A stretch of DNA of 64,000 nt from an uncultured Thermoplasmata archaeon (GCA_964353355.1 CAYGVT010000017.1:24567-88566); one strand, 5' to 3'. Positions 1 through 55,848 are shown, numbered from the stretch's first letter. Numbers and translations are program-made. Notes: generated from the letters alone by a model not told the origin.

Positions 1-447
1 CTGCAGCTCATCATCGCGCTGCTCATCGTGTCGATCGCGATGGGGATCATCTTCGAAGGGCTGCGGGCGTACTCCAAGGCGCAGTCCGAGACAGCGGCCT
101 CGTCCCTCGCGCAGGACATCGAATCCGCGGCCAGGCAGGCCGCGAAGGGCGGCAACCTGACCACCCTGCTCGTGAGGGTGAACCTGGACTCCTCGCGGGT
201 GGACCGTCTGACCTACTTCCGCATAGGGGTCGGCGACAGAAAGGACGGGATCGCCTACAAGGTGGCCAACGACGATGTCGTCCAGAGGTTCGTCGGACGC
301 CCTGTCCTCAGGCTCGTCGACGGCCAGTACGCGGATGGCCCGCTCGAGCTGGGCCAAGGGCGCTCCATCCTCTACGTGAGGCACGTGCTGGACCCCCGGC
401 TCGACCCCCCCGACTTCATAGCCGTCTGGTCCGTCCCGACGGGATGA
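1..447 (+). CDS. hypothetical membrane-anchored protein, 5'-truncated at window edge (N-terminal hydrophobic helix then soluble domain; pilin-like topology)
   Basis: Open frame from nt 1 (LQLIIALLIVSIAMGIIFEG...) to stop at 445-447; G/C-rich third codon positions; convergent with minus-strand gene ending at 450. Confidence 0.4.
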   Translation: MQLIIALLIVSIAMGIIFEGLRAYSKAQSETAASSLAQDIESAARQAAKGGNLTTLLVRVNLDSSRVDRLTYFRIGVGDRKDGIAYKVANDDVVQRFVGRPVLRLVDGQYADGPLELGQGRSILYVRHVLDPRLDPPDFIAVWSVPTG

Positions 448-449
448 CC

Positions 450-1100
450 TCAGCCTGGCCAGCATGCGAGGGAGACCATGAGCCGGAGCCCGGTCCCGGG
501 GGCGTCGCCCGCGAGCGATGCCGGCACATCGTACGTGTAGGAGGACGTGTAGACCTCGCCCTTCGGGAAGGTCCCCTCCCACGTGGGACCACCGACGCCC
601 TCGGACGTGATGAGCATGAACATGCCCATCCCCTCGGAAGGGCCCACCGCGCCCCCCGGGGGCGTCGTGTCGGTGGCCGCCATCGAGTACCCGTGCTCAG
701 GGAGGACCAAGGCGTCGAGGGAGGCCTTAAGCACGGTCCCCAGCCCCGCGTCCGCGGCGGCGGGGGCCCCCTGCCTCCGGAACGCCAGCTCCAGGCCCAG
801 GAGCTCCACCACCTTCTGGTCCCTGACCTGCACGACTTGCTGCGATGGGTCCGTGACCGTGGCATTGGGTACGGTGGACTGCAGCCAGCGCGTCAGGCCC
901 AAGGAGGTGTACCGCAGCCCGTACTCGTCGTTCTGGACGGTCGACCTGGTGCCGGTCGACAGCGTCAGCACCCATGTGCCCAGTATCGCGAGCGTGACCA
1001 CGAGGACCAGGAAGATGGTGTCGATGAGGCTGGACATCGCCCCCCTGTCCGCCATCCTGACGAGCCTGGACCGCCGCATCGGCTCAGACCTCCCAGACAC
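450..1100 (-). CDS. hypothetical protein with single N-terminal TM helix (archaeal pilin-like / class III signal-peptide-like)
   Basis: 216-aa ORF; basic N-terminus followed by hydrophobic stretch SSLIDTIFLVLVVTLAILGTWVL; third codon positions almost all G/C; overlapping plus-strand ORF 583-1773 is low-complexity antisense. Confidence 0.45.
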   Translation of the reverse strand: MSGRSEPMRRSRLVRMADRGAMSSLIDTIFLVLVVTLAILGTWVLTLSTGTRSTVQNDEYGLRYTSLGLTRWLQSTVPNATVTDPSQQVVQVRDQKVVELLGLELAFRRQGAPAAADAGLGTVLKASLDALVLPEHGYSMAATDTTPPGGAVGPSEGMGMFMLITSEGVGGPTWEGTFPKGEVYTSSYTYDVPASLAGDAPGTGLRLMVSLACWPG

Positions 1101-1644
1101 GCACGGTCAGCCTGGCGGCATGGACCTCGTCTATGTCGACGAAGATGTCGACCAACCAGACGAGCGACTGCACCTCGTAGCCGATGTCCCCCGTCCCCAT
1201 GCTGAAGGTGAGGCCATCGTGGCTCGGGTAATCGGTCAGGTCCTGGATGTAAAGCTCCCACCCGAACTCGCCCTCGGTGTGAAGGCTCCGGTTGAAATCG
1301 GCGAAGAGCCCCTCGCCGTCGGTCCCCCCATCCGAACCCCCCTGCTCATAGGAGCCCCTCAGCGCGGCAAGCTTGGCACCGCTGTACAGGCCCTGCTCGC
1401 GGTACATGTCCTCGAGGAGCAGAGGGTGGTTGAGGACGGTGGTCGAGATGGACAGGCAGTCCTCGTACAGGTCCAGCCTCCTGTCGTAGTCTGCCTTGGT
1501 CTCGTACACCCCCGTGAGCGAGACCACGAAGAGGATCACGACCGTCACGACGACTGTGAATGCCAACAGCTCTCCCACTGGGCCCTCGAGCCCCGCATCG
1601 TCGCGCCTAAGACGATGGGCTGGCGCATAGGTACGGATGGCCAT
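1084..1644 (-). CDS. hypothetical protein with N-terminal TM helix (pilin-like), paralogous topology to 450-1100
   Basis: ORF 1084-1743. Internal Met at 1644 (MAIRTYAPAHRLRRDD... then LLAFTVVVTVVILFVVSLTG) is preceded on the minus strand by a TATA-like GGTAATAT element (plus-strand 1671-1678) about 30 nt upstream, so I take the start as 1644. Confidence 0.4.
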   Translation of the reverse strand: MAIRTYAPAHRLRRDDAGLEGPVGELLAFTVVVTVVILFVVSLTGVYETKADYDRRLDLYEDCLSISTTVLNHPLLLEDMYREQGLYSGAKLAALRGSYEQGGSDGGTDGEGLFADFNRSLHTEGEFGWELYIQDLTDYPSHDGLTFSMGTGDIGYEVQSLVWLVDIFVDIDEVHAARLTVRVWEV

Positions 1645-1762
1645 CCAGTGCCTCCAAGGCACTATCCAACATATTACCTTTTTGCTGGCAAGGCCCGGGC
1701 TGGCATCGCCATCCGGCTGGCCGACCTCCAGGGCCGAACACAAAGGATATTAAGCCATAGGG

Positions 1763-1777
1763 CCCTTATATAAAGGG
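1763..1777 (+). promoter_or_regulatory. archaeal TATA box (CCCTTATATAAAGGG, near-palindromic) for the 1813-12465 operon
   Basis: AT-rich TATA-like element about 40 nt upstream of ATG 1813 in an otherwise 68% GC context; similar TTTAWA motifs precede several other genes in the window. Confidence 0.5.
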
Positions 1778-1812: not shown

Positions 1813-3315
1813 ATGGAAGTGAAGGTGCACTACTTCAAACCGACGGGGGATGTCGAGACTATCGACAAGATGGAGGTGGACAGCAAAGAGACCATCCGTG
1901 ACGTCAAGGAGAAGCTCATGATGTACTACGGATTGAGCGACGACCTTGCCGACCCCTACTGTCTGGGGACCCACATGACCCCTTCGCCCCCAGATGAGAC
2001 GATTGTCGGGGACCTCAAGATCAAGTCCGGCGCCATCATGTTCCTGCGCAAGGCCTCCGTGCCCCCGCCACCGCCGCCCGCATCGGCCAAGGGCATGCTC
2101 CTCACGCTGAAGGAGGGTACCTCACGCAAGGTCCTCCTGAGCCGGGACGACGCCGTGCAGCTCGCCGTGGACCACGGGGACCTTGTGCGCCTCTCCGACC
2201 CCGTGAGCGGCATCTCGGTCGTGGGCAAGGTGGAGGTCTCGGACGGACTGACGATAGGGTCCTGCGAGATCGATCAGACCCTCGTCGACTCGATCGGCTC
2301 CTCCGAGGAGATGGAGGTGAGCGTCCAGAAGTTCGACTCGGGCAAGCTGCGCACGGTGTCCGGCATAACGTTCGGCATCAAGCCGATCGGGGGCATGTCG
2401 GACACGGACGCGGTCCTCCTCGTGAGGGAGAAGGAGGAGGCCCTGCTCAGCTTCATGGACAAGTCAATCATCGTGAAGGGCCAGAAGTTCAGGTGGGACG
2501 CGGGGGGGGTGCTGGTCTACATCCTGAACACCCAGCCGCCCCTGGGCCACGACGAGGTCGCGGTGGTATCGAACGAGATCCTCGGCGAGTACAAGTACCA
2601 GGCCTGGGGCGTGGAGCCGAACTTCGACGGCGTCCTGCTCATCGACCTCTCCTTCTCCATGAACACCGAGGACATGCCTGTCCGGAACATGGACCAGGCG
2701 ATCAAGTACCTGGGCTCAGGCTTCGAGGACAACGACACAAAGGCGTTCCTCGGCGGCTTCAAGGACGGGGGGCAGTGCCGCAGGCTCGAGGGCGCCATAC
2801 TCTCGGCCATCATGTACCTGGCGGGCAAGATCGGCCGCGGCAAGGGCGAGCGCGTGGCATTCGTGCTGTTCAGCACCGAGGCCAACTTGATAGACTTCTC
2901 GGGCTCCCCGTTCTACGACGCGACGATGAACAGGGACCTTTCGGGCATCGCCCGCAAGCTCATCACCACCACCAACACGATGGAGATGCTCGGTACCAAC
3001 ATGACCAGCGCCCTCGAGGCGGCCCTCTGGGTGTCAGAGCGCATGGGCCAGAACAAGATGAAGATGATAGTGATCCTCACGGACGGCTACCCGGACGACG
3101 AGGCGAAGGTCCGTGAGTACGTGGAGAAGGTCATCGCGCCCAAGCCGGACATCGTGGTCTTCGGGGCGGGCATCGGCCAAGAGGTCAACCAGGAGTTCAT
3201 GCACGCCATCACCACCTCCACCGGTGGCGAGTTCCTGCAGGTGAAGAGCCTGGACGAGCTCACCGAGTGGTACAGCAACCTCGCCCGGAAGCTCGAGTTC
3301 AAGGGAAGGAGGTAA
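1813..3315 (+). CDS. ubiquitin-like (beta-grasp) domain plus small beta-barrel domain plus von Willebrand factor A (vWA) domain protein
   Basis: 500 aa. N-terminal ~80 aa (MEVKVHYFKPTGDVETIDKMEVDSKETIRDVKEKL...IKSGAIMFLRKA) has a ubiquitin-like beta-beta-alpha pattern followed by a PPPPPP linker. Middle LTLKEGTSRKVLLSRDDAVQLAVDHGDLVRL resembles AbrB/Cdc48-N-type barrels. C-terminal vWA with MIDAS DLSFSMNTED, then MKMIVILTDGYPDD and VVFGAGIG. Confidence 0.8.
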   Translation: MEVKVHYFKPTGDVETIDKMEVDSKETIRDVKEKLMMYYGLSDDLADPYCLGTHMTPSPPDETIVGDLKIKSGAIMFLRKASVPPPPPPASAKGMLLTLKEGTSRKVLLSRDDAVQLAVDHGDLVRLSDPVSGISVVGKVEVSDGLTIGSCEIDQTLVDSIGSSEEMEVSVQKFDSGKLRTVSGITFGIKPIGGMSDTDAVLLVREKEEALLSFMDKSIIVKGQKFRWDAGGVLVYILNTQPPLGHDEVAVVSNEILGEYKYQAWGVEPNFDGVLLIDLSFSMNTEDMPVRNMDQAIKYLGSGFEDNDTKAFLGGFKDGGQCRRLEGAILSAIMYLAGKIGRGKGERVAFVLFSTEANLIDFSGSPFYDATMNRDLSGIARKLITTTNTMEMLGTNMTSALEAALWVSERMGQNKMKMIVILTDGYPDDEAKVREYVEKVIAPKPDIVVFGAGIGQEVNQEFMHAITTSTGGEFLQVKSLDELTEWYSNLARKLEFKGRR

Positions 3316-3319
3316 GGGG

Positions 3320-6300
3320 TTGGCATGGCGGCCCACCCCCGAGCCTGACGAAGAGAGGATGGCCCGCGAGGAGGTCCTGAGGCTCCAGACGGAGCTCAAC
3401 CGGCTGTACCTAGCCGGCCATCCAATCGCTCACTTCGAACGCAGGCTCGATGACCTGAAGGGGGAGATGCGGGGGGACAGGTTCGAGGAGTCCCTCCGAC
3501 GGGCCAGGGAGCTTCTATCGGAGCTGGATGGGTACAAGCGGGCGGTCCTCGCCTCGAGCGCCCTGCTTCTGGAGGTCCGGTCGCTGACGGCCAAGGCCAA
3601 CCTGATCGGCATCGATACCGTGCTGGCGAAGGTCGACGTGGACCGGGCGGAGGCGATGCTCCAGAAGGGAGAGCTGGAGGGTGCCATGGCCCTGGCACGG
3701 CCTCATCTGGTACGGCTCAGGCAGACCGTCTGGGAGTACGAGGTCGCGCGCGATGCGGTGCTGCTCGCCCAGCAGACCATCTCGAGGCTATGGGCGTCCG
3801 GCACCGACGTCTCGGAGCACGAGCGCACCCTCGGGAAGGCCCGCGCGGAGATGAGGAGGAGGGACTACGCCCGCGCGCTCGAGCTGGCCCATGAGGCGAG
3901 CCCGGACAGGTCTGCCGCGGAGACCGAGCGGCAGACCGCGTCGAGGCTCGCGGCAAGCCTACGCGACCTCTTGGGCGTCGCCCAGGGCAAGGGCATCGAC
4001 ACGGCCACGGCCGAGGGGGCCCTGCAGGAAGCGGAATCCCAGCTGGGGCGGGGGATGATGGGCGTCGCCATGAGGCATGCCCAAAGGGGAATAGACGAGC
4101 TGGACCCGCGCATCATGGCCTACGACCATGTGGAGGAGCTGGGCAAGAAGGCGCTCGAGGTGTACTCGACCATCGCCGCGACGGTCGGGCATGGGTCCGG
4201 CGTCGAGGCCGAGCTTGGGAGGCTCAAGCCGCTCCTCGCAGAGGGACGTGCAGAGGAGGCACGGTCACTGGCCACCGAGCTCATCGAGCGGCTCACTGCC
4301 CAGAGGGACGTCGTCGCCTCGTTCTGCGCGCTGCGCGCCCCGACCGTCAGGTACCTTGCCGAGCTCCGCGGGAGCGGGGGCGCGGACGTGGACCGGGCGG
4401 ACGAGCTCATGCGGGATGGTGAAAGGCTCTACGCCTCGTGGGACTTCAACGGCGCGTTGGAACGCCTCAAGTCGGCGAACGACGCACTGCTGGGCGCCCT
4501 CGCGACGCCCCGGGGCATGGACCGCCTGGAGCGGGCCATCGCGCGGGCCCTCGGTGAGGCCTCGAGCGAGAGCCTGCGAACCGAGCTCGCAGGCAGGCTG
4601 GAGGAGGGCCGCCTCGTCAGGGAGCGGTCCGGGCCCAAGGAGGCCTACAGGGCGCTCGAGGAGGTCCGCTCCACCCTGAGGGCGTCCGCGACCGGCGCGA
4701 GGGGCCATGCGGGCACGTCCCTGGAGGAGGGCGAATGGACCGCCGGGGGCCTGCTCGACGAGGGGGGCCAGGGCGCCCTGGGCGGCATCGGCCATGCGTC
4801 CGCGGCAGAGGAGCGGTACGAGCACGAGGCGATGCTCGAGCACGAGCAGGCGATATTGGGCGAGATAGCCAGAATGTCGGCCGACCTCCAGCAGATCGGC
4901 GCGGACCCCGGCATGCTCAAGGAGATCGGCACGGACGTCCGTGACCTCCTGCGGGCCGGCGATGCCATCGGCACCGACCTGCTGTTGATGCATGCCAGGC
5001 GGCTCGCGGCGCCCAACCGCTTCGCCTTCTCGCACGGCGTGGAGATGGAGATGGGACTGGTCTACCGCGACGGGTCCTGGGTGACGGGCGAGCGGGTCAC
5101 CCGGGTCATCTCGGACCTCGTCGAGGAGGGCGTCAAGCTGCTCCGCAGGACCATCGACGAGGGCAAGGTCCCCTCCTACGTGAGCAAGCGGATCGTCGAT
5201 GTCCGGCTGGCCCAGCCGAGCCACCCCAAGAGGGGGAAGGTGGTGGAGGTCGACTACATGGTCGGCGGGCAGCTCGTGACGATAGACGTGCTGGGGAGGG
5301 ACGCGCATGGGTCCGGCACGACGTACATACTGGAGCTCGTGTCCCCGCCGTGCGTGTACGTGGAGGAGCTCCTGTGGTGGCTCCACACGCTCCAGCGCAT
5401 CTCATGCGCCATCTTGGGCGTGAGGCACCCTGACGTCCTCCCCATCTCCGTGGGACTGAACCCTGCCCAGCCCTATTCCGAGTGCATCTCGTTCGGGGAC
5501 CATCACCACATCAAGCTCCCCGACGAGGCGTCGCGCAGGGCCGCCTTCAACATGCTGCGCGCCCATGTGCCGCACCTCATCGCCCTCACCGTGAACTCCC
5601 CGATATACAAAGGCGACGTCCCCGCCATCAGGTGGGACGGTTCGCATCCCATCCAGCTCGGCTCGAGGACGGACCCCCTGTCACTGAGGCTCAGGGAGAA
5701 CATAGGGCAGCTGGGCCCGATCGGGGGCGCCTACATCCCATACCTGCGGGAGGGCGATGGCCAGGACCACTTCACGAGTGCCGTGAGGAAGGCATCGGCG
5801 GCCGACGCCCGGCTCGTGGACATCTACCCCTTCACCCGGTTCGGGACCATCGAGATCAGGTTCTTCGACGCCCAGCTCTCGGTCGTCGACAGGGTCGCCC
5901 TCGCGGTCATCATCCAGTCGCTGTGCGCCTGGGCGGTGCGTCAGATGCGTGAGGGGGGGGAGGGCCCCGAGGTCGACCCCCAGGTCCTGCTCGAGAACAG
6001 GGACAGGGCCATCCAGAAGGGGATGCTGCTGGGGTTCAAGAAGGACAAGACGCTCGCGACGGCGCACCCTGGCTTCGCGAGGCTCTACCAGTCGGAGGGG
6101 GAGGGCGGTGCAAGGAGCGTCCAACGCATACACGACGCGGTCAAGAGGATGTTGGAGAACATCCGCCCCGAGATGGAATCCATCGTCCCCCCCGGTGGCC
6201 TGGGCGGCAGCCTCGACACATACTTGGTCATGGTCCATGGCGGGGACAAGCGCGTGATCCCGCCGCCCATCACGCCCAGCCAATTCCTGGTGTACAAAAC

Positions 6301-7072
6301 GATGATGATGAACAACGACGTCCCCGCGCTGGTGAGGTACATCAGCTCGATCGTCCAGAAGTGCGGGAGGAACTCCAGGTACAACCCCATCGTGGAGGCG
6401 CTGGGGGCGCCAGACCTCTGGTCCTCGGAGGTGCGGCCATCCCAGGCCCCTGGCCAGGGAGGGTTGGGGGTCATGGGAGCCGGCGGACCGGGCGGTACGG
6501 ATGGCGGGGGGGCCGTCCCGACGACGACCGGCGCCTCGCCATCCGGGCCCGACGCGGCATGGTCGCCCAAGGCAGGGGCGGATGGCGACGCCCAACTGCC
6601 CCCGAAGGCACGAGGGACCGCCATCCATCTGGCAGGAGCCCCGTCGCCCGCCGGGCCACCTGCGGGGGCCACGACGGAGACCCCTCCCGAGGTCCAGATG
6701 GCAGGCGCACCCCTCCCTCCCCATGCTGGCCTCTCGACGGATGCACCGGGTCGCAGGGATGGTGGAACGGAACACGGGGGCGGGATGGCAGGGCAGCCCG
6801 TCATGGTCGGCGGAGCCATCGTGGCCCAGGTGGAGGACATACCGGTCCCCACCGACGCGCGCGCGGGGAGCGCGGAACACCCCCTGAGCTGCGGCTCGTG
6901 TCATCACGAGGTCGAGCCAGGCTTCCTCTTCTGCCCTCGCTGCGGGTCGCAACTGACCCCATCGTGCCCCTCATGCGGGAACGCGGCGACGCAATCGGGG
7001 CTCTTCTGCCAGCACTGCGGCCATCCCTTGGGACAGGGGACCACCGTCCAGGCCAGGGGTGAGCAGCGTTGA
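3320..7072 (+). CDS. large multidomain protein: N-terminal alpha-helical/coiled-coil region (~550 aa), GCS2/YbdK-type carboxylate-amine ligase domain, Gly/Pro/Ala-rich linker, C-terminal double zinc ribbon
   Basis: 1250 aa. Residues ~560-950 match YbdK/GCS2 motifs: FSHGVEMEMGLV (vs YbdK LGIELEMQVV), GDHHHIKLPD (vs HVHVGC), HLIALTVNSPIY (vs HFIALSAASPYM), FTRFGTIEIRFFDAQ (vs HFGTVEVRVMDT). C-terminus CGSCHH...FCPRCG...CPSCGN...FCQHCG is a DZR-type zinc ribbon. 4-nt gap to upstream gene. Confidence 0.85.
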   Translation: MAWRPTPEPDEERMAREEVLRLQTELNRLYLAGHPIAHFERRLDDLKGEMRGDRFEESLRRARELLSELDGYKRAVLASSALLLEVRSLTAKANLIGIDTVLAKVDVDRAEAMLQKGELEGAMALARPHLVRLRQTVWEYEVARDAVLLAQQTISRLWASGTDVSEHERTLGKARAEMRRRDYARALELAHEASPDRSAAETERQTASRLAASLRDLLGVAQGKGIDTATAEGALQEAESQLGRGMMGVAMRHAQRGIDELDPRIMAYDHVEELGKKALEVYSTIAATVGHGSGVEAELGRLKPLLAEGRAEEARSLATELIERLTAQRDVVASFCALRAPTVRYLAELRGSGGADVDRADELMRDGERLYASWDFNGALERLKSANDALLGALATPRGMDRLERAIARALGEASSESLRTELAGRLEEGRLVRERSGPKEAYRALEEVRSTLRASATGARGHAGTSLEEGEWTAGGLLDEGGQGALGGIGHASAAEERYEHEAMLEHEQAILGEIARMSADLQQIGADPGMLKEIGTDVRDLLRAGDAIGTDLLLMHARRLAAPNRFAFSHGVEMEMGLVYRDGSWVTGERVTRVISDLVEEGVKLLRRTIDEGKVPSYVSKRIVDVRLAQPSHPKRGKVVEVDYMVGGQLVTIDVLGRDAHGSGTTYILELVSPPCVYVEELLWWLHTLQRISCAILGVRHPDVLPISVGLNPAQPYSECISFGDHHHIKLPDEASRRAAFNMLRAHVPHLIALTVNSPIYKGDVPAIRWDGSHPIQLGSRTDPLSLRLRENIGQLGPIGGAYIPYLREGDGQDHFTSAVRKASAADARLVDIYPFTRFGTIEIRFFDAQLSVVDRVALAVIIQSLCAWAVRQMREGGEGPEVDPQVLLENRDRAIQKGMLLGFKKDKTLATAHPGFARLYQSEGEGGARSVQRIHDAVKRMLENIRPEMESIVPPGGLGGSLDTYLVMVHGGDKRVIPPPITPSQFLVYKTMMMNNDVPALVRYISSIVQKCGRNSRYNPIVEALGAPDLWSSEVRPSQAPGQGGLGVMGAGGPGGTDGGGAVPTTTGASPSGPDAAWSPKAGADGDAQLPPKARGTAIHLAGAPSPAGPPAGATTETPPEVQMAGAPLPPHAGLSTDAPGRRDGGTEHGGGMAGQPVMVGGAIVAQVEDIPVPTDARAGSAEHPLSCGSCHHEVEPGFLFCPRCGSQLTPSCPSCGNAATQSGLFCQHCGHPLGQGTTVQARGEQR

Positions 7073-9579
7073 CGGGCCCGATCATCGATGCCAGGGCGCT
7101 CCTGGGCCTGCTGCGTGCGACCAGCCCCTCAGGCTGCGCGCTCTGCGGTGGAAGTGCACGTGTAGTGTGCACAAGGTGCCGGTCGCGCGTCTGCCCTGAG
7201 TGCGATGCCGGGGCCGATGGCACGGGACGGAAGAAAGGCCGGAGGGGAGGGCGCGGGCCGGCCGTGTGCCTGGCCTGCGCGCTGGAAGGAGGTGACGCCC
7301 CCAACGCCGCCAGGGTCGTGGAGGCACGGCTGTCCGACCTGAACTTGATGGTGAAGGACCTCAAGTCGGGGGGGGGGACGGTCGGGCCGGGCGCGCTGAT
7401 CAGGCCCGCGCATGCCACGCTGCTCCAGCTCGCCTGCCTTGAATCGGTGCTGGGCAGGGAGGGGCTCGAGGCATCCTCCACAGTCCTGAGGCGAGGCCGG
7501 CCGTTCCTCTTGAGGAACCTGGGCCATGCCCTGTCCATCACGGCGGAGGCCGGCCGGCCGACACAATCCAGGGTCGGCGAGCAGCTCGACGCGTACTATG
7601 GCTCGGTAGTTGCCCTGCTGAGAGGTCCGCCCAGGCCCGCTGGGGAGGCCCCTTCCGTCGATGGCGCCGATGGGGACGGGCTATCGTGGGCGCTCGCCAT
7701 CGAGGTGGGGCTGGACAGATTGCGGAGGTACTTCAGCTTCCATCACCTGGACGAGCCAGGGACGACCGTCGATGCCCTCCTCGGACGGGTCTCCAGGAGC
7801 CTGGATGATACGCTCGCCACATCGTCGCCATCGCCTGCCTCGGTCCAGATCGCCGCCATCAGGAAGGTCCTGTTGGAGGTGGATGGGTTTGACGACTACG
7901 ACTCCACGGCGCTGCGGCGATATCTGGACCCCTCCATGGCGGAGACGATCGACGTCCCGGAGATGTCGGCGTTCGTCCGGAGGCTCCTCATCGCCGAGCT
8001 CCTGCTCGCCCTCGCCATCGCCAGGACCGAGGCCGCACCGACCATCCCGGGGAGCGTGAGGGACGACCTGGACACGGACATCGAGAGGCTCGGGACGACG
8101 ATAGGGCGCCTGCTCAGGGCGGCGGACGAGAGGGGGGGTCGGCCCAGCGCGCTGCCCGGCCTCCTCGAACGCGCGCAGTCGGCCACGTTGTCGGCCATGC
8201 GAGCGGCCGTGAGAGCGCGGAGGGCGGCAAGGGCCGGGTCCTATGCTAAGTCGCTCGTGGCGGCGATGCGGGCGATCGTCTGCCTGGAGGGCGTCAGCCT
8301 GCTGCACGAGGCCGCGTTCGGCATGGGCCCCAGGGAGGCCGACATCTGGGACGTGCTCGATGCCTGGACGACCGAGCTCCTCGAGAGCAGCGCCGCCACG
8401 GCCATCGCGGCGCAGGGGGCGCAGGGCGGGCCATGGGACGCAGCGCAGGTCCGTCGCGTCCTTAACGCGACCGATGCCCTGGAGACGAGGTTCGTGGGCA
8501 TGCTCGAGGGTCTGGGCGCCTCATCGAAGGCCGACACCGGGTACATCAGGCCCGCCCACGATCATCTGTGGGGACTGGTCAGATCGATGGTCCTGGCACG
8601 CCTCGCCCCCTCCCCCGACCCCACCGCCCTCATGGGTGTCGTGGGCGGATCCACGGACGACCTCCGCGACCTGCTGGCCCTGAGAAAGGCTCATGGCAGG
8701 CCCCCATCGACCAGGCAGGACGCCTGGTTCGAGGCCAGCCTGGATTCCCTGCGGGCGATGGCCTCCCCGGCCCCCTCCGTCGTGGCCCCCCAGACCCCGG
8801 TGGTCGAGACGGCCGCGGTCCAGGAGGTCGCCGTGGCGGTCCGTCCCGTGCGGCCACCGCCATCCCCGCTCGAGGAGCTGGGCCTCGAGCGCATACTCGG
8901 GGCGTTCGGCGACGCCCCCAGGCTCGTTCGGTGCGGGGGCCTGGGCGCGGGGGGGCTCGTGGCGGTCCTTCTTCCCGGGACGGTGGAGGCGCTCGAGGGG
9001 CTCGAGGGCCGTCTCGGGGGCCGTCTCGGGGGCTCGATATCGATATCTGAAGACCACCTCTCGGCAAGGCTCGTGGCGGTCCCCAGGACGGACGACGTCT
9101 GGGAGGCCAGGGAGCTTGCGCGGGAGGCGTCGCTGCTCCAGATTCTGGCACAGGGCACCCCGGCGGGCGGCCCGGTCACGCTCATCGCCTTCGCATCGCT
9201 CCCTGCGCCTGGAGGGCCGATGGCGATACTCTCGGACACCTGGATCGTCTCGGAGGAGCGCACGGTGAGGCAGTGGGGCCGCCGGGAGGCCCCCGCCTCC
9301 TCCACCGTCTCCGGGCCCATGGACGGCCTGCATGCGGCGCTCTCGAGGGCCGGAGGAGTGACGGTCATCCGGGACGATGGCGGGGCCTACCTGCAGGGAT
9401 GGCTATGGGGCCTCCTGCGCGAGCTGCGGCTCAGGGAGGGCGCGTTGGAGGGAGCGCCCGACGTCCGCGCCGTGCAGCTCGCGGGGAATGCGGCCTTCTA
9501 TCGCTGGCTGTCCGAGGATGGGGCGCGCGATGGCTCCTTTGGAACGACGCTCGATGCCCTCTCACAGGGGGCGGGGTGA
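7069..9579 (+). CDS. hypothetical protein with N-terminal 8-Cys zinc-binding module (4x CxxC) and long Ala/Leu/Arg-rich helical region
   Basis: 836 aa. Starts TTG in a TTGA overlap with the stop of the preceding gene. CALCGGSARVVCTRCRSRVCPECD...VCLAC gives four CxxC pairs (binuclear treble-clef/RING- or B-box-like spacing). No other recognisable motif. Confidence 0.7.
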   Translation: MTGPIIDARALLGLLRATSPSGCALCGGSARVVCTRCRSRVCPECDAGADGTGRKKGRRGGRGPAVCLACALEGGDAPNAARVVEARLSDLNLMVKDLKSGGGTVGPGALIRPAHATLLQLACLESVLGREGLEASSTVLRRGRPFLLRNLGHALSITAEAGRPTQSRVGEQLDAYYGSVVALLRGPPRPAGEAPSVDGADGDGLSWALAIEVGLDRLRRYFSFHHLDEPGTTVDALLGRVSRSLDDTLATSSPSPASVQIAAIRKVLLEVDGFDDYDSTALRRYLDPSMAETIDVPEMSAFVRRLLIAELLLALAIARTEAAPTIPGSVRDDLDTDIERLGTTIGRLLRAADERGGRPSALPGLLERAQSATLSAMRAAVRARRAARAGSYAKSLVAAMRAIVCLEGVSLLHEAAFGMGPREADIWDVLDAWTTELLESSAATAIAAQGAQGGPWDAAQVRRVLNATDALETRFVGMLEGLGASSKADTGYIRPAHDHLWGLVRSMVLARLAPSPDPTALMGVVGGSTDDLRDLLALRKAHGRPPSTRQDAWFEASLDSLRAMASPAPSVVAPQTPVVETAAVQEVAVAVRPVRPPPSPLEELGLERILGAFGDAPRLVRCGGLGAGGLVAVLLPGTVEALEGLEGRLGGRLGGSISISEDHLSARLVAVPRTDDVWEARELAREASLLQILAQGTPAGGPVTLIAFASLPAPGGPMAILSDTWIVSEERTVRQWGRREAPASSTVSGPMDGLHAALSRAGGVTVIRDDGGAYLQGWLWGLLRELRLREGALEGAPDVRAVQLAGNAAFYRWLSEDGARDGSFGTTLDALSQGAG

Positions 9580-9582
9580 CCG

Positions 9583-11157
9583 ATGCTCCGGTTGACAGAC
9601 GACTCTGGCAGGTCGCACGGCTTCCTCGTGGCGGACGTCCACCACCACGTCGGCAGCGAGGGCCAGACGAGGAACCTCAACCCCAAGGAGCCGAACGGCT
9701 CGTACGACTTCTTCAGGGGGGTCCAGTACGGGTCCGAGTCCAAGCCAGGTCTGGCGACCATCCTCAGGGATTCCGACGCCTTCAAGTACCACATCACGGG
9801 GGGGGAGGCGTTCCCCCCTCATCCCATGCTGAGGTGCCTCTCCCTCGCCGACGAGCGGATGGGGAGGGCCTTCGAAGGGAGCTGGGCCATCGACCTGTCC
9901 GTGGCGTTCCCGATGCACGACGACTTCCGCTCCAACGACGTCGTCGAGTACAGGGCCTCCAACAGGCGGCTTGCCAAGGTCGTCGGTGTCCTGCCGAACA
10001 GCCTGAGGTTCATCCCGTGGGGAAGGGTCAACCCGGACGACGGGGCGGTGGCGTGCGAGGAGCTGCACAGGGCCGCCTCAGAGGACGGCATCAGGGGCCT
10101 CAAGCTCCATCCCAAGAGCGAGGGGTTCGACCTCGAGGGGGCGGGGTTCAGGCTGGTCCTGCGCGCGGCGGCGAGGCATGCCCTCCCCGTCATCCTGCAC
10201 ACCGACTGGAAGAGCGACCGCCGCCGCATCGTCGAGGCCGTCGACGACACCATCGTCGCGCTCGCGTCGGAGGGCGACGTGGGGGCGATAGCCGACCTGC
10301 GGGTCATCCTGGGGCACTTCGGGTGGGCCGTGGACCCGGAGATGATAGGCTTCATAGCGCACCCCTGTGTCTACGGTGAGGTCTCCGGGCTGCGCGGCAG
10401 GGGAGCGACGGAGTTCTTCAGGATCGCGAGGGACCACTTCCCCGACCACAGGTGGGACGCCTCGGCCCTCCTTTCGAGGGTCCCAGACCCGTCCAGCGTG
10501 TCCAGGGCGCTCCGCCCGGGGATAGTGGGGGACTGGTCGAGGAAGGTGATGTACGGGTCGGACAACCCCTTCCTCAACCAGAACAACTCCATCGACACCA
10601 TCGGCGCCATCTTGGGCAGGGAGCTCGACCTCACGGCCCTCGAGGTGGCGAACATCCTGGGCCTGAACGCGCTCGCGCTCTTCGCCAACGGCGCCGACGG
10701 GATGGACGGTGGCGGCCGTCCAGCGCCACCGGCGATGACCGTCCCTGGCCAAGTCCCGTTCTCAGGCACCCTGGAGGATGGCGCCCTCTTCCTGGCGGTC
10801 ATGCTGAAGGGCCTGCCCCAGAACATGAGAAGGGTGCGCTTCGTCCCGCTGCTGGCCGCCGAGCCACAGCCCCGGCTGCTGCCCGAGCTGGGGGTGCTGC
10901 ACGTGTCGGGGCGCGAGGAGAGCGGGACCTCGTTGCTCTCGGTCCAGCTGGGGGCCACGGGTCGGATGGGGTTCATGGCAATCGATTGTCCCGCATTCCC
11001 GCCCGCTGCCCTCGGGGACCCCCTGTCCCAGCTCGTCGCCGATGGCCTCGTCGCCGCGGCATCGAGGCAGCCAGGTTGCCAGGCGGCCACGATGGCGGAG
11101 GCGCTCGTGCTGTCACGGTTGGGCACCCGTGGCGGGGAAGAAGCCCAGGAGGATTGA
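9583..11157 (+). CDS. amidohydrolase-2 family (TIM-barrel metal-dependent hydrolase)
   Basis: 524 aa. FLVADVHHHVGSE near N-terminus, GLKLHPKSEG, PVILHTDW, ILGHFGW and MYGSDNPF are spaced as in PF04909-type metal-dependent hydrolases. 4-nt gap from upstream gene. Confidence 0.75.
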   Translation: MLRLTDDSGRSHGFLVADVHHHVGSEGQTRNLNPKEPNGSYDFFRGVQYGSESKPGLATILRDSDAFKYHITGGEAFPPHPMLRCLSLADERMGRAFEGSWAIDLSVAFPMHDDFRSNDVVEYRASNRRLAKVVGVLPNSLRFIPWGRVNPDDGAVACEELHRAASEDGIRGLKLHPKSEGFDLEGAGFRLVLRAAARHALPVILHTDWKSDRRRIVEAVDDTIVALASEGDVGAIADLRVILGHFGWAVDPEMIGFIAHPCVYGEVSGLRGRGATEFFRIARDHFPDHRWDASALLSRVPDPSSVSRALRPGIVGDWSRKVMYGSDNPFLNQNNSIDTIGAILGRELDLTALEVANILGLNALALFANGADGMDGGGRPAPPAMTVPGQVPFSGTLEDGALFLAVMLKGLPQNMRRVRFVPLLAAEPQPRLLPELGVLHVSGREESGTSLLSVQLGATGRMGFMAIDCPAFPPAALGDPLSQLVADGLVAAASRQPGCQAATMAEALVLSRLGTRGGEEAQED

Positions 11158-11160
11158 ACG

Positions 11161-12465
11161 ATGGACCGGACCGCTCTCACCCTCAAGTTCGCTGCAATCG
11201 ATGAATCGAAGATAGCCCTCTCCCCGGCTGACGCTGCGACGCTCGGTGTGGACGTCGGGGACATAGTGAGGGCCATGGACGAGAACTCCATGGAGCTCGG
11301 CGGCGCCAAGGTCGAGGTCAGGGGCGACGTCGAGACGGGCTCGTTCCTGGCCAGCGAGCAGTTCGCCGAGTCGCTCGCCATGGACGAGGGCTATCCGTAC
11401 ACCCTCGAGCGTTACGATGGCGAGATGGACGTGTCGCTCGAGACGGTGATCCTGGACATCACCGAGATGGGCGCCAGGACAGACATGGGGAGGAGCGTCA
11501 CGAGGGGGCATAGCGCGTTCGAGGGCTTCCTCCGTGGCAAGGTCATCAATCGCGGGCTGAAGCTGAGATGGTCCGAGATGGGTGTGAACATCGAGGTCCG
11601 GCAGACGGTCCCGCCCCTGCGGGACAACCAGTACGTCATAGTTGGGGACATCGCCAAGATGGAGCTCTACGCCGTCGGTGTCCCGTTCAACGGCATCCTC
11701 CTCGTGGACGTCAGCAAATCCATGAACGAGACGGACATGGTCGTGGATGACCGCGTCCTGCCCATGCTCAGCAGCCTCCACTACCTGGCGGACAATGCTA
11801 TGCCGGCCATGCACGACTACATCGCCCGCATCGAGAAGAGCGATCGGATACGGAGGATCGACTCGGCGGCCCTGTCGGCGATGCTGTACCTCTCCGAGAA
11901 GGTGGCGAGGGGCCAGGGGGAGAAGACCGCGATCATAACGTACTCGGACCGCGCAGAGCCGCTCTCGTACAGCCTCAGGGAGGGCGATGCCGTGATAGAG
12001 GTCCCATGGTACGACCTCTCCAAGGGCAGCGTGGGGGAGGATGAGAGGCGGGAGGCCGCCGTCGTCATCGGTGATGCGCTGCTGATGCGCATCGAGCGGG
12101 CCGAATCGAAGAACACCAACATGGAGGCGGCGCTCCTGCAGGCCAAGAGCGTGATAGAGATGATGAAGGCCAAGGAGGCCGGGTCCGCTCAGGGCCCTCC
12201 CAAGCCCATCATGGTCGTCTTCCTCACCGACGGCGAGTACAACGTCGGTCGCTCACCTGTGCGGGTGGTCCAGGAGGCCTTCAAGGCCCTCGAGGGGGTC
12301 GTGGTCCACACCGTGGGGATCGGGGGCAGCGTCGACGAGGCGCTCCTGAAGAGGGTCGCCGAGCTCGGGGGGGGGGAGTACTGCAAGGCCCAGAACCTCG
12401 TGGAGCTCGTCGACTTCTACAGCAGGAACGCGAAGCGGTTCGGGACCAGCGCCTTGCTGAGATGA
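11161..12465 (+). CDS. vWA domain protein (paralog of the C-terminal two-thirds of 1813-3315)
   Basis: 434 aa. N-terminal LTLKFAAIDESKIALSPADAATLGVDVGDIVRA matches the barrel module of the first gene. vWA with MIDAS DVSKSMNETD, IMVVFLTDGEYN and VHTVGIGG. 4-nt gap from upstream gene. Confidence 0.8.
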   Translation: MDRTALTLKFAAIDESKIALSPADAATLGVDVGDIVRAMDENSMELGGAKVEVRGDVETGSFLASEQFAESLAMDEGYPYTLERYDGEMDVSLETVILDITEMGARTDMGRSVTRGHSAFEGFLRGKVINRGLKLRWSEMGVNIEVRQTVPPLRDNQYVIVGDIAKMELYAVGVPFNGILLVDVSKSMNETDMVVDDRVLPMLSSLHYLADNAMPAMHDYIARIEKSDRIRRIDSAALSAMLYLSEKVARGQGEKTAIITYSDRAEPLSYSLREGDAVIEVPWYDLSKGSVGEDERREAAVVIGDALLMRIERAESKNTNMEAALLQAKSVIEMMKAKEAGSAQGPPKPIMVVFLTDGEYNVGRSPVRVVQEAFKALEGVVVHTVGIGGSVDEALLKRVAELGGGEYCKAQNLVELVDFYSRNAKRFGTSALLR

Positions 12466-12520: not shown

Positions 12521-13015
12521 TCACGGCCCTCGCACAGGGATCTGCTTGGTCACGTCGCCACCCATGGTCGATTGGCCCCCCGAGGCCTTGATGGTTATGA
12601 AGGCCCCTTCGCTGCCAGGGAGGTCGAACGTGAGGTCGTCAATCACCGCCTTGCCGTATTTATCGGTCGATGCTGGTATCATTGTGAATCCAGGGCCAGT
12701 GATCTCGACCTTGGCACCATCCACGCCGCTGTTCTTGGTGTCGAGGACCTTCAGTTCCAACTTGATCTTGGCGGGGCTGGTGCTGCACTGATAGAGCGTC
12801 CCGCTCTTCCACTCGGCGTTTTCAATAACCGTGATGGTGACCTCTATCTTGTCTATCTGGTCCTTGCTGATGTTAGAAATAAGGTACGCGATCGTCGCTA
12901 TGACCAGGATGGCCACGATAATGGCTATCAGGAGCGTGATGGCCTCCATGCCCCCGTCCTGGGGCCTGAACCGATGCAAGCGATAACTCCCTCTCCTCAA
13001 CTCGTTCCCCTCCAT
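12521..13015 (-). CDS. small secreted/membrane-anchored beta-rich protein with pilin-like N-terminal TM helix; low-GC gene
   Basis: ORF 164 aa (alternative start Met23 at 12949: MEAITLLIAIIVAILVIATIAYLI). TATA-like GGTATATATAG at 13043-13053 upstream on the minus strand. Local GC about 55% versus 68% surroundings. Confidence 0.6.
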   Translation of the reverse strand: MEGNELRRGSYRLHRFRPQDGGMEAITLLIAIIVAILVIATIAYLISNISKDQIDKIEVTITVIENAEWKSGTLYQCSTSPAKIKLELKVLDTKNSGVDGAKVEITGPGFTMIPASTDKYGKAVIDDLTFDLPGSEGAFITIKASGGQSTMGGDVTKQIPVRGP

Positions 13016-17654: not shown

Positions 17655-17990
17655 CGGAAGGCTTTTTAATACCCTGGGGCCATAGATTCCCGGTAAGGGA
17701 GGGAAGCCCGGGTGAGGAAGTCACTAGTGGTGGGGGTCCTAGCGGTCCTGCTCGCATTGCCAACCTTCGTAGGCCTACCGCATGAGGCCCCCGCGGACGG
17801 TCAGCCTTGGGACGAGGCTCAGGTCGGACCGCGCATCACCGCACCGAATCTGGCCGAGGTCTCCGAGATATTCCGTGGCCTCCAGGGTTTCTTCACCGAG
17901 AACCTCGGCCTGGTCGACAATCCCGAGGTCAGATTCTACGCGCAGGGGGACGCTCTGTCGGTTGGGTTCACGCTCGATGGCCTCATCCTA
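17655..17990 (+). repeat. duplicated promoter plus 5'-CDS module (copy A), ~80-85% nucleotide identity to 26605-26940
   Basis: Aligned by eye: ...TTTTTAATACCCTGGGG...GGTAAGGGAGGGAAGCCCGGGTGAGGAAG...GGTCCTAGCGGTCCTGCTCGC...TTCTACGCGCAGGGGGA... shared with the region upstream of and within gene 26660. Confidence 0.7.
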
Positions 17991-26604: not shown

Positions 26605-26940
26605 GCAAGGTTTTTTTATTCCCCAGGGTCTTGGTTGCTAGGTAAGGGAGGGAAGCCAGGTGAGGAAGACAGTGATGGTGGGGGTTCTAGCGGTCCTGCT
26701 CGCTTTGCCAACTCTCGTGAGCCTGCCGCAAGGTGCCCCTGCAGACGGGCAGTCCTCGGACGGGGCCCGGGTCGTCCCACGCACCACCGCACCAGACCTG
26801 GCCGAGGTGTCCGGGATGTTCCATGGCCTCCCGGGTTTCCTCACCGAGAACCTCGGCCCGGTCGACAACCCCGAGGTCAGGTTCTACGCGCAGGGGGATT
26901 CTCTCTCCGTAGGCCTCCCACGCGACGGGCTCATCATCAC
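26605..26940 (+). repeat. duplicated promoter plus 5'-CDS module (copy B), counterpart of 17655-17990
   Basis: GGTTTTTTTATTCCCCAGGG...GGTAAGGGAGGGAAGCCAGGTGAGGAAG...GGTTCTAGCGGTCCTGCTCGC...TTCTACGCGCAGGGGGA. Confidence 0.7.
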
Positions 26941-50720: not shown

Positions 50721-50948
50721 GACCCTTTCGTCGAGGCTAAACCCCGCGCGCGACCCTGGTCTCCCTTCTGGCAGACGGCGAACGCCGACGCGCCACCGAG
50801 CCAGGCTCCGGGGGCACCCCTACACGGCATGTCATGGTGCGGCACGACCTCCGGTACCCGTGGCCGCGACCACCCACATGCGCCCGCGCGCGCGGGCGCG
50901 CGCGCGGGGAAGGTTCATATACCGCCCTTTCCCTCGGGGGCGCGGGGG

Positions 50949-55715: not shown

Positions 55716-55848
55716 GGAGTGGTATGACGGTCATAGCTGCGGGGTTCACCCGGTCCCATTCCGAACCCGGTAGTTAAGCCCGCATACGTTCCTGCCTGTA
55801 CTGAGGTGCTCGCGCCCTCGGGAACACAGGAAAGCTGTCAACCACTCC
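55716..55848 (+). rRNA. rrf: 5S ribosomal RNA
   Basis: GGUCCCAUUCCGAACCCGGUAGUUAAGCCCGC core matches the universal 5S loop B/helix III consensus. Termini GGAGUGGU...ACCACUCC form helix I. No 16S/23S within +/-8 kb. Confidence 0.7.

Follow-up and report, generated by a model that had tools for sequence, protein, structure and literature searches.

A YbdK-type ligase with a helical rod and zinc ribbon, encoded with an amidohydrolase and VWA-domain proteins: a candidate reversible modification system in archaea

A 64,000-nucleotide stretch of DNA from an uncultured Thermoplasmata archaeon (the window) encodes a ligase of the YbdK/GCS2 type embedded in a much larger protein, and genes orthologous to three of its operon partners accompany related ligases in distant archaeal lineages. 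Because the ligase travels with an amidohydrolase and with VWA-domain proteins, a reversible modification system is suggested. The explanation we favor, at a probability of roughly 0.45, is that the ligase would be the writer and the amidohydrolase the eraser, with the rod as scaffold, the zinc ribbon docking on VWA proteins, and a substrate that is probably protein-bound.

The ligase gene and its operon

The ligase open reading frame is a real coding gene and not a chance reading frame in a genome of 68% GC, as is confirmed by its GC3 (0.88 overall; 0.89 in the N-domain, 0.93 in the core, and 0.78 in the linker and zinc ribbon), a GGAGGT Shine-Dalgarno-like motif 7 nt 5' of the TTG start, calls of the identical protein on three public contigs, and homologs with the same layout. 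Its position and length are exactly those of the initial annotation (Table 1). It is the second of five tightly packed genes spanning 1813–12465 in the order VWA-1, ligase, the zinc-module protein p836, Amidohydro_2, and VWA-2. From 3315 to 12465, no gap or overlap between neighboring genes exceeds 4 nt, and the only sizeable gap before 12465 is the 70 bp between the operon and the divergent gene at 1084–1743 (−). These junctions, together with a TATA-like box and Shine-Dalgarno-like motifs, argue for a real operon; its five genes are translationally coupled, and we infer that the TATA-like box is the promoter.

Table 1. Operon features and ligase segments in the window
Feature	Position	Strand	Basis or remark
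TATA-like box CTTATATAAAG	1765..1775	+	Read from sequence; ~43 nt 5' of the first operon gene, followed by a GGAGG-rich leader
Gene 1, VWA-1, 500 aa	1813..3315	+	Pfam VWA E 8.6e-11
Gene 2, ligase, 1250 aa	3320..7072	+	ORF call, profile and fold matches
Ligase residues 1–460, rod of tandem antiparallel three-helix bundles	3320..4699	+	AF2
Ligase residues 461–492, Gly-rich disordered hinge	4700..4795	+	pLDDT, composition
Ligase residues 493–563, last three-helix unit, directly 5' of the catalytic core	4796..5008	+	AF2
Ligase residues 564–1030, YbdK/GCS2-type ATP-dependent carboxylate-amine ligase core (predicted)	5009..6409	+	Foldseek, profiles
Ligase residues 1031–1187, Gly/Ala/Pro-rich non-conserved flexible linker	6410..6880	+	Composition, alignment
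Ligase residues 1188–1237, double zinc ribbon, four CxxC pairs	6881..7030	+	Pfam DZR
Gene 3, p836	7069..9579	+	ORF; 4-nt overlap with the end of the ligase ORF
Gene 4, Amidohydro_2 metal-dependent hydrolase, 524 aa	9583..11157	+	Pfam E 8e-17
Gene 5, VWA-2, 434 aa	11161..12465	+	Pfam VWA E 3.3e-7

A predicted competent core in an outlying subfamily

Profile and fold searches place the core, at about residues 560–1030, inside the GCS2/glutamine-synthetase-like superfamily, in line with the initial annotation. Foldseek gives the catalytic domain a YbdK-type fold (E 1e-11, TMt 0.77), and the family profile finds YbdK in the PDB at E 4.9e-10 in three collinear blocks. TIGR02050 matches at E 1e-15 with 57.9 bits against a cut-off of 176.4, and Pfam GCS2 at E 5e-4 with 19.9 bits against a cut-off of 21; the close homolog P0011 passes the Pfam model at 27.5 bits. 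By these profiles the ligase is an outlying subfamily of GCS2/YbdK, to which its relationship is significant although the curated PF04107 and TIGR02050 scores are not reached. The four YbdK peptides named in the initial annotation are all present in PDB 1r8g and are collinear with the window protein; in the alignment of the two, FTLGIELEMQVV pairs with FSHGVEMEMGLV, HVHVG with HHHIK, FIALSAASPYM with LIALTVNSPIY, and FGTVEVRVMDT with FGTIEIRFFDA.

Residues E575, E577, E672, H728, H730, E845, R847, and D850, which align to YbdK motifs and are common to the canonical YbdK-like matches, are kept in at least 90% of ~98 family representatives and, with R790, are the intact active-site residues of the window protein. 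The motifs FxHGxExE, ILExxxPPC, GD/EHHH, PHLIAL(S/T)xNSP, and YPFTxxGTIExRxFD are likewise all present. On these residues and the modeled fold, the core is predicted to be a catalytically competent ATP-dependent carboxylate-amine ligase, retaining the metal- and ATP-binding residues whose loss the initial annotation had named as the mark of a pseudo-enzyme. The activity that its family suggests, joining a gamma-glutamyl carboxylate to the amine of cysteine, is putative. Other residues are invariant only within the family (Y646, D661, P676-P677-C678, H729, H752, and N794, with H728–H730 forming HHH), and the AF2 model has, as compared with YbdK, ~50 additional beta-hairpin residues after the first strand and before the ELxxPPC motif.

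The subfamily is large, distinct, found almost only in archaea, and apparently undescribed. It comprises ~100 clusters at 50% identity (100 representatives at E<1e-30), nearly all from Asgard archaea, Thermoplasmatota, and Aenigmatarchaeota, and the window protein matches its profile with 682 bits (E 3e-200). There are 189 loci in species genomes, and the best 80 of the 189 are nearly all Asgard or Thermoplasmatota. Representatives range from 425 to 3804 aa, some with 2000–3300 aa of the helical repeats that make up the rod, and ORFs at 82 loci have a median length of 1141 aa; the architecture that had been called unusual is so relative to the canonical 370-aa YbdK, but large multidomain proteins are the norm in the subfamily to which it belongs. 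Three other metagenomic ligases (P0011/L088, P0012/L087, and L090; 45–49% identity) have the full layout and the same neighbors, but flanking genes of the four loci are 66–69% identical, and their shared synteny may partly reflect kinship.

Compared with YbdK/GCS2 proteins (E. coli YbdK, 1r8g; the Salmonella homolog, 1tt4; PF04107, TIGR02050), the window ligase is only ~16–21% identical and carries its own invariant Y646, D661, PPC, HHH, H752, and N794. YbdK is a stand-alone single-domain protein of ~370 aa, whereas the window ligase has 1250 aa with four additional segments, including the fused rod and zinc ribbon, and differs also in its conserved amidohydrolase and VWA partners and its almost exclusively archaeal distribution.

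Rod, linker, and zinc ribbon

The N-domain is rich in Ala, Leu, Arg, and Glu (15, 14, 13, and 12%) and is all helical in the AF2 model, as had been anticipated. The N-terminal rod (residues 1–460 and 493–563; pLDDT 88.8) is modeled as about seven three-helix bundles. Residues 1–460, with pLDDT mostly 85–95, are entirely helical, with ~40-aa helices alternating with ~15-aa helices; they give a weak internal repeat signal (hhalign E 6e-5) and are homologous in P0011 (E 1e-83) and P0012 (E 1e-74). The hinge at 461–492 (pLDDT 35–41, 33% Gly) varies in length among homologs (alignment A3), and the unit that follows it (helices 493–525, 531–545, and 549–563; pLDDT 85–95) is conserved in P0011 and P0012. 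The predicted model is like spectrin-like rods (EzrA, 4uy3; Ebh/Embp, 2dgj and 6gv5; archaeal AF1782/DUF357, 2oo2) in its consecutive antiparallel three-helix bundles and long continuous joining helices; the rod has no Pfam or PDB sequence match and no detectable sequence relationship to these proteins. The same helical repeats recur in the giant family members, up to more than 10 times, and are also encoded by stand-alone neighbor genes (L105_456, E 1e-16; L104_666, E 8e-15), matches to be read with the high bias scores of iterated searches using helical, compositionally biased repeats. They would thereby be part of the system, and the repeat family appears specific to it.

The 157-residue linker at 1031–1187 (20% Gly, 17% Ala, 15% Pro) has the composition that had been described for a disordered segment, and its identity among clade members is 24–25%, with many gaps, against 65–67% in the core. 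The zinc ribbon described at the C-terminus is borne out by four CxxC pairs (CGSC, CPRC, CPSC, and CQHC) and by Pfam DZR, which exceeds its gathering score (32.7 versus 27.3 bits, E 8.3e-8) over residues 1191–1234 with the whole model covered; its eight Cys are invariant in the window protein, P0011, and P0012, and Pfam calls DZR in both homologs too. Within the clade, identity is 65–67% in the core, 32–37% in the rod, 39–41% in the DZR, and 23–27% in p836, a slow core and fast periphery that fit interaction modules around a conserved enzyme.

The earlier suggestion that these parts tether the enzyme to a partner agrees with the helical repeats and VWA partners recurring across the family and with a precedent in Sulfolobus: in the ArnA/ArnB co-crystal, the ArnA zinc ribbon, carried on a long disordered linker, binds the archaeal VWA protein ArnB (PMC12852372). 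The window locus shares with ArnA/ArnB (8s05) a MIDAS-bearing VWA protein, a zinc ribbon on a flexible linker, and type-IV-pilus-like genes nearby, but the window zinc ribbon is a double one and sits on an enzyme instead of an FHA domain; its docking would be by analogy. ArnB has a split beta-sandwich where the window VWA proteins carry a Cdc48-N-like N-domain, and the window system has no kinase or phosphatase.

The partner genes

VWA-1 consists of an N-terminal region of ~90 aa, a Pro-rich linker, a Cdc48-N-like barrel (~94–230), and a VWA domain whose MIDAS (D278-x-S-x-S, T395, D424) is invariant in 14 orthologs. Its low-confidence model (pLDDT 62) resembles a p97/Cdc48 N-domain followed by an alpha/beta domain, and its Foldseek matches, indicative only, are to p97/Cdc48 N-D1, p97N alone (TMt 0.57), DEPDC5, and ArnB (8s05; E 1.6e-7 by fold, with a weak sequence match at E 0.0012). 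The N-terminal ~90 aa, disordered in the model at 38–93, are a possible ubiquitin-like extension (Pfam E 0.1, hhalign E 0.002). VWA-2, a Cdc48-N-like barrel plus VWA, is a paralog of VWA-1 (28% identity in alignment A4, 32% in A5) with separate orthologs in L105 (E 1.6e-57) and L104 (E 8.8e-51). The third gene product, p836, has an N-terminal 8-Cys zinc module, a ~500-aa helical region, and a C-terminal part; it matches the B-box weakly (E 0.005), and its homologs, 23–27% identical with the Cys pattern kept, are restricted to positions downstream of the three other ligases of this architecture. The amidohydrolase has conserved D18-x-H20-x-H22, H176, H245, and D327. With the MIDAS and the HxH/H/H/D residues invariant, these partners look functional.

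Ligase, amidohydrolase, and Cdc48-N-like/VWA proteins co-occur in distant archaeal lineages, in differing orders and orientations, and window genes 4, 1, and 5 are orthologous to the Amidohydro_2 and VWA partners found there. Amidohydrolase orthologs (26–31% identical) lie 0.3–4.4 kb from the ligase in seven lineages (Jord-, Frey-, Loki/Prometh-, Hermod-, and Heimdall-archaea, Thermoplasmatota, and Aenigmatarchaeota) and in the giant-ligase locus L105. VWA-1 orthologs adjoin the ligase in many lineages, and VWA orthologs are adjacent to it, in varying order and strand, in Thermoplasmatota, Aenigmatarchaeota, Jord, Frey, the window clade, and L105. The module is not universal, since in Thorarchaeota, the largest group, an amidohydrolase is within 10 kb of the ligase in 0 of 35 cases and the VWA gene is ~9 kb away.

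In five Thermoplasmatota/Aenigmatarchaeota loci, two small ubiquitin-family proteins (Pfam ubiquitin E 1e-10) are encoded between the amidohydrolase and the ligase, whose N-extension there contains a domain homologous to the small proteins' C-domain (hhalign E 1.2e-5). The ubiquitin-like proteins are clear only in this subgroup, with no counterpart detectable among Thor, Loki, or Jord ligase neighbors, and their C-termini have neither Gly-Gly nor a conserved terminal residue.

A proposed writer and eraser, and the alternatives

If the ligase, amidohydrolase, and VWA proteins form one functional module, then the ligase would activate a carboxylate by way of an acyl-phosphate, as enzymes throughout its superfamily do, and join it to an amine, and the amidohydrolase would hydrolyze the amide so made, completing a writer/eraser pair. 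The rod would serve as spacer or scaffold, and the ligase zinc ribbon and the p836 zinc module may find their docking sites on the VWA proteins, as in the binding of ArnA's zinc ribbon to ArnB. The substrate, which we infer only from gene context, would most likely be a group carried by a protein or peptide that the VWA/Cdc48-N-like adaptors hold, and not a free metabolite, comparable to the action of PafA/Dop on Pup. The window ligase is not itself a member of the PafA/Dop family (4bjr, 9cku, 7oxv; PF03136), being much closer to YbdK and GCL, and no Pup-like or proteasome/Mpa genes are found among the operon or flanking genes scanned. The PafA/Dop eraser is a paralog of the ligase, whereas the putative eraser here is an unrelated TIM-barrel amidohydrolase; PafA/Dop act on the protein Pup, whereas protein modification by the window ligase is a proposal. 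Against the writer/eraser explanation, besides the module not being universal, the closest solved relatives, YbdK and GCL, act on small molecules, and metabolite pathways just as typically contain a ligase/amidohydrolase pair.

A possible, though doubtful, alternative is a small-molecule enzyme whose product is a free metabolite with an amide bond (a dipeptide, or a gamma-glutamyl- or other acyl-amine), with the amidohydrolase making or degrading a related compound and the rod, zinc ribbon, and VWA proteins only localizing or regulating it. Across lineages, however, the ligase neighborhoods show no further conserved genes for biosynthesis or transport; the partners that are conserved are modules for protein interaction (VWA/MIDAS, Cdc48-N-like, ubiquitin-like), rods of up to 3300 residues fused in some members are hard to explain for a soluble metabolic enzyme, and the invariant Y646, D661, P676-P677-C678, H729, H752, and N794 distinguish the pocket from that of YbdK. 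Very improbable is the more ordinary synthesis of a low-molecular-weight thiol, gamma-glutamylcysteine, by a GCS2-type GshA with decorative extensions. The haloarchaeal gamma-glutamylcysteine ligase is a GCS2-family enzyme, one homolog here is annotated as a "glutamate-cysteine ligase family protein," and NCBIfam glutamate-cysteine ligase models match at E 1e-14 to 1e-5, but those matches reach 25–54 bits against cut-offs of 332–437, canonical YbdK-like proteins are ~27–30% identical over less than half of the core, and the subfamily is set apart by invariant residues and partners of its own. A pseudo-enzyme, its ligase fold surviving only for structure or binding, is scarcely credible: known-family profiles do match weakly, with Pfam GCS2 just below threshold, but the window protein retains all metal- and phosphate-binding positions, each of them conserved in at least 90% of the family, and no other part of the protein is as conserved as the core (65–67% versus 24–41% elsewhere).

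The neighborhood of the operon brings up a special case of the writer/eraser explanation, in which the module would regulate the adjacent type-IV-pilus/archaellum-like locus with VWA protein and zinc ribbon acting like ArnB and ArnA and ligase and amidohydrolase replacing the kinase/phosphatase switch. Pilin-like genes are on both operon flanks (450–1079 (−), 1084–1743 (−), and 12521–13015 (−)), a T2SSE-type ATPase and a 640-aa protein are encoded just upstream in L001 and L090, a pilin-like small protein lies beside the module in L105, and VWA-1 matches ArnB by sequence and by fold; ArnA, which binds ArnB by its zinc ribbon, controls archaellum expression (PMC12852372). We nevertheless regard this as improbable, as pilus genes were seen beside the module in the window clade alone, which is highly syntenic overall, and perhaps in L105, with none noted next to it in the Loki, Thor, Jord/Frey, or Thermoplasmatota loci, and no FHA domain, kinase, or phosphatase is present.

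Returning to the writer and eraser, its furthest-reaching form, which we consider unlikely, is that Asgard archaea and Thermoplasmatota have an unrecognized ATP-driven protein-modification system, similar to pupylation in mechanism and independent in origin. If so, the rod and the zinc-ribbon/VWA docking would position a YbdK-type ligase that joins a protein carboxylate to the amine of a target held by Cdc48-N-like/VWA and ubiquitin-like adaptors, and the TIM-barrel amidohydrolase would take the mark off. The Cdc48-N-like and VWA adaptor would then correspond, on the prokaryotic side, to the N-terminal half of DEPDC5/Iml1 in eukaryotes.

The ligase gene and its setting in the window

The ligase ORF, which starts at a TTG with a GGAGGT motif 7 nt ahead of it and specifies 1250 residues, is a coding gene and not a chance ORF. 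Long chance ORFs are common at the GC content of the window (61-73%); here GC3 reaches 0.88 over the whole gene, with 0.93 for the core and 0.78 for the low-complexity tail, three public contigs carry the identical called protein, and the complete domain layout is common to homologs at 45-49% identity. The gene is the second of five on the same strand, separated by gaps or overlaps of no more than 4 nt, with a TATA-like box upstream of the first, followed by a GGAGG leader (see table). The window is archaeal, since it encodes TiaS, the tRNA-Ile2 agmatidine synthetase. It also holds a single 5S rRNA gene, and no further rRNA and no tRNA was found in the 64 kb.

Small pilin-like proteins with an N-terminal hydrophobic helix surround the operon, and the genes immediately upstream of it encode an ATPase of the T2SSE family together with a 640-aa protein, an arrangement that is kept in L090, the locus of one of the closest homologs; together these make up a type-IV-pilus or archaellum-like locus. 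Elsewhere in the window lie genes for three probable surface proteins. Two are tandem paralogs of ~1470 aa that combine DUF7948 and SBBP beta-propeller repeats with several fibronectin-III domains, and after them comes a protein of 1305 aa that bears He_PIG Ig domains. Next to a 1024-aa homolog of gingipain-type peptidase C25 is an ABC-2-type permease into which a CarboxypepD_reg-like domain is inserted.

Coordinates of the features discussed in the text
Feature	Contig	Position	Strand
Pilin-like protein	window	28-447	+
Pilin-like protein	window	450-1079	-
Pilin-like protein	window	1084-1743	-
Gene 1, VWA-1	window	1813-3315	+
Gene 2, ligase	window	3320-7072	+
Gene 3, p836	window	7069-9579	+
p836 N-terminus with Cys module	window	7069-7300	
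Gene 4, Amidohydro_2	window	9583-11157	+
Gene 5, VWA-2	window	11161-12465	+
Pilin-like protein	window	12521-13015	-
~1470-aa paralog	window	17712-22115	
~1470-aa paralog	window	22112-26539	
He_PIG protein	window	26660-30577	
ABC-2-type permease	window	31652-33151	
Peptidase C25 homolog	window	33243-36317	
TiaS	window	50712-52310	
5S rRNA gene	window	55723-55843	
T2SSE-family ATPase and 640-aa protein	L001	2285-6618	
Giant ligase P0041	L105	10001-18223	
Giant ligase P0027	L104	3214-9912	
Ubiquitin-like pair	L068	2448-3388	-
Ubiquitin-like pair	L033	1968-2922	-
Ubiquitin-like pair	L041	1277-2285	-
Ubiquitin-like pair	L051	1183-2227	-
Ubiquitin-like pair	L027	18-995	-

An intact catalytic core of the YbdK/GCS2 fold

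In fold and active site the core is related to YbdK/GCS2, but in its relation to curated profile thresholds, its size, its family-specific residues, its partners, and its distribution the protein falls outside the characterized family. Pfam GCS2 scores 19.9 bits on the core against a cut-off of 21, and TIGR02050 matches with an E value of 1e-15, yet at one third of its trusted score. When a profile of the window core and four Asgard homologs was searched against PDB structures, it matched E. coli YbdK (1r8g; E 4.9e-10) in three collinear blocks, and these are exactly the YbdK peptides that the initial annotation had named. An AlphaFold2 model of residues 1-1040, built on an alignment of 51 sequences (mean pLDDT 88.8, pTM 0.80), superposes on solved structures over residues 564-1030.

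The metal-binding Glu and His and the phosphate-binding Arg residues are kept in the window ligase (E575, E577, E672, H728, H730, E845, R847, and D850), and at least 90% of ~98 family representatives share them. The initial annotation would have given up its assignment if profile searches had placed the core outside the GCS2/glutamine-synthetase-like superfamily or had revealed the loss of metal- or ATP-binding residues. Profile and fold searches make the core a member of this superfamily, and the residues are present both in the window protein and across the family, so neither objection holds and a pseudo-enzyme is very unlikely. Because its GS/GCS-type active site is intact, the ligase is expected to activate a carboxylate at the expense of ATP and to form an amide, and we put the probability that the window protein is an active ligase of the YbdK/GCS2 fold at roughly 0.85.

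Accessory domains and distribution of the family

N-terminal to the core, AlphaFold2 predicts with high confidence that helices of ~40 residues alternate with helices of ~15 residues (residues 11-460 and 493-563), broken by a Gly-rich hinge (461-492). The model suggests a spectrin-like rod, for which no sequence relative was found in Pfam or PDB. The core is followed by 157 unconserved residues rich in Gly, Ala, and Pro and then by the double zinc ribbon, which had been noted from the sequence and is borne out by a Pfam match above the gathering score; the segment compositions noted with it likewise agree with those we computed. This layout of rod, core, linker, and zinc ribbon is common to P0011 (1239 aa), P0012 (1251 aa), and the protein of L090 (1274 aa), the closest homologs, which with the window protein form what we call the window clade. 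Identity within this clade is 65-67% in the core, 32-37% in the rod, 39-41% in the zinc ribbon, and ~25% in the linker, and all eight zinc-ribbon Cys are invariant. Beyond the clade the closest cores are ~41% identical, the nearest named homolog being P0015 at 40-41%, which makes an affinity of the window to Thermoplasmatota possible.

A full-length word-indexed search returned the window protein alone, but it is not an orphan, because a core-only query, a core-profile search, and contig scans revealed a family. The core profile found 742 matches among 1.84 billion cluster representatives, and the 100 with E<1e-30 are a distinct subfamily of proteins of 425-3804 aa. These ~100 sequence clusters form a coherent ligase family that is almost exclusively archaeal, in a lineage sampling dominated by Thorarchaeota. 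Scanning a single genome for each prokaryotic species, with the window genome outside the representatives matched, gave 189 loci; of the best 80, almost all are Asgard (Jord-, Frey-, Thor-, Loki/Prometh-, Hermod-, and Heimdallarchaea), the others being a few Thermoplasmatota and a single Aenigmatarchaeota. Public annotations call the relatives "hypothetical protein" or at best "glutamate-cysteine ligase family protein," and our full-text literature search turned up nothing that describes this subfamily or its partner module.

Across lineages the core is constant and the accessory domains differ. Asgard ligases (median ORF 1141 aa) mostly carry ~700 residues C-terminal to the core, with weak Ig-like matches. 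Thermoplasmatota ligases have an extension in front of the core that combines a TM helix with a small alpha/beta domain; this extension was considered as a counterpart of the window rod and rejected (hhalign E 0.84). Seven giant ligases of 2232-3804 aa (P0027, P0038, P0040, P0041, P0052, P0054, and P0059) have the core near the C-terminus, and in all but P0054 the preceding region, up to ~2800 residues long, was shown to consist of many copies of the three-helix repeat of the window rod. This repeat also occurs in separate genes adjoining two giant ligases. Iterative searches of this kind, with helical repeats as queries, are easily misled by biased composition. P0038 also contains a helix-hairpin-helix domain.

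Conserved gene partners of the ligase

The ligase is recurrently linked to an intact metal-dependent amidohydrolase and to MIDAS-VWA/Cdc48-N-like proteins. Amidohydrolase orthologs, 26-31% identical and with invariant metal ligands (HxH/H/H/D), are encoded 0.3-4.4 kb away from the ligase gene in Jord-, Frey-, Loki/Prometh- (11/17), Hermod-, and Heimdallarchaea, Thermoplasmatota, and Aenigmatarchaeota, and one is present in the giant-ligase locus L105; gene order and orientation vary among these lineages. This linkage has its limits. No amidohydrolase was found near the ligase in Thorarchaeota, where a downstream 579-aa protein was considered for this role and rejected. Within the window clade, synteny reaches beyond the module to the upstream type-IV-pilus-like ATPase and pilin-like genes.

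The VWA proteins fall into two orthologous groups with invariant MIDAS residues, both of which are represented in the window and in L105. They adjoin the ligase in Thermoplasmatota, Aenigmatarchaeota, Jord-, and Freyarchaeota and lie ~9 kb away in Thorarchaeota, and orthologs were found in seven loci (L013, L027, L033, L041, L051, L068, and L105). VWA-1 of the window, which has 90 extra N-terminal residues, was modeled with AF2 from two sequences at low confidence (pLDDT 62). The extra residues were considered as a possible ubiquitin-like domain; ubiquitin matched them at E 0.1 in Pfam and E 0.002 in hhalign, and the model is disordered at residues 38-93. The best PDB fold match of this low-confidence model is DEPDC5/Iml1 of GATOR1/SEACIT (E 1e-10, ~420-465 aligned columns), with p97/Cdc48 N-D1, the isolated p97 N-domain, and ArnB also matched and p97 N-D1 and ArnB ranking below DEPDC5/Iml1. 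These matches fit a Cdc48-N-like domain followed by a VWA domain, an order that VWA-1 and VWA-2 would share, and judging from the model, the VWA proteins could represent a prokaryotic equivalent of the N-terminal half of DEPDC5 that is widespread in Asgard archaea.

Five Thermoplasmatota and Aenigmatarchaeota loci encode, between amidohydrolase and ligase, two paralogous small proteins of the ubiquitin family (Pfam E 1e-10). Each has 140-180 aa, in which a ubiquitin-family domain at the N-terminus is joined to a small C-terminal domain bearing a W-L-x-x-N-I-G motif; they lack a Gly-Gly end, and some have acidic C-terminal tails. The C-terminal domain is related to the part of the same-locus ligase N-extension that accompanies the TM helix. 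For the conserved neighbor families of Thor, Loki, and Jord loci (clusters 1, 4, 8, 12, 14, 20, and 21), no relationship was found with the rod, with p836, or with the ubiquitin-like proteins.

The p836 gene is limited to the window clade and overlaps the ligase gene by 4 nt; its conserved N-terminal 8-Cys module (C-x2-C-x7-C-x2-C-x4-C-x2-C...C-x2-C) directly follows the zinc ribbon of the ligase. Searches of PDB and Pfam gave nothing but a weak B-box-like match to this module, and no homology was seen between p836 and the ligase rod, the C-terminal extensions, or any neighbor outside the window clade.

Protein-borne or small-molecule substrate

Ligase, amidohydrolase, and VWA proteins are likely to form one functional module. 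In such an assembly of proteins the ligase would act as a writer and the amidohydrolase as an eraser, the rod could serve as spacer or scaffold, and both the double zinc ribbon of the ligase and the p836 zinc module might dock onto the two VWA proteins. ArnA offers a parallel: it docks onto ArnB, a VWA protein, through a zinc ribbon tethered by a long disordered linker (PMC12852372), and the ligase zinc ribbon likewise sits on a long flexible linker. An anti-phage defense role was considered and rejected; none of the five operon proteins had a match in PADLOC.

What the ligase would modify is the point on which readings diverge. The types of partner, the ubiquitin-like proteins of Thermoplasmatota, and the precedent of PafA/Dop, which act on a protein-borne substrate in the same superfamily (PMC2588565), point toward a protein-borne substrate, and we tentatively entertain a macromolecular one, at somewhat less than even odds. 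The window ligase is itself not a member of PafA/Dop, and that it makes a small-molecule product is a serious rival explanation.

Implications

The enzyme fold and its chemistry are already known, and what is new is the conserved multi-protein setting: multidomain to giant ligase architectures unlike those of any characterized GCS2 enzyme, and a recurring set of partners comprising the amidohydrolase, MIDAS-VWA/Cdc48-N-like proteins, and ubiquitin-like proteins. If the ligase and amidohydrolase modify proteins, they would represent a second, independent route to reversible protein tagging built on the glutamine-synthetase-like fold, and this tagging system would belong to the closest archaeal relatives of eukaryotes, in which ubiquitin-like and Cdc48 systems attract evolutionary interest. 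If the substrate is instead a small molecule, the family would represent a new ligase specificity and an unusual scaffolding of a metabolic enzyme.
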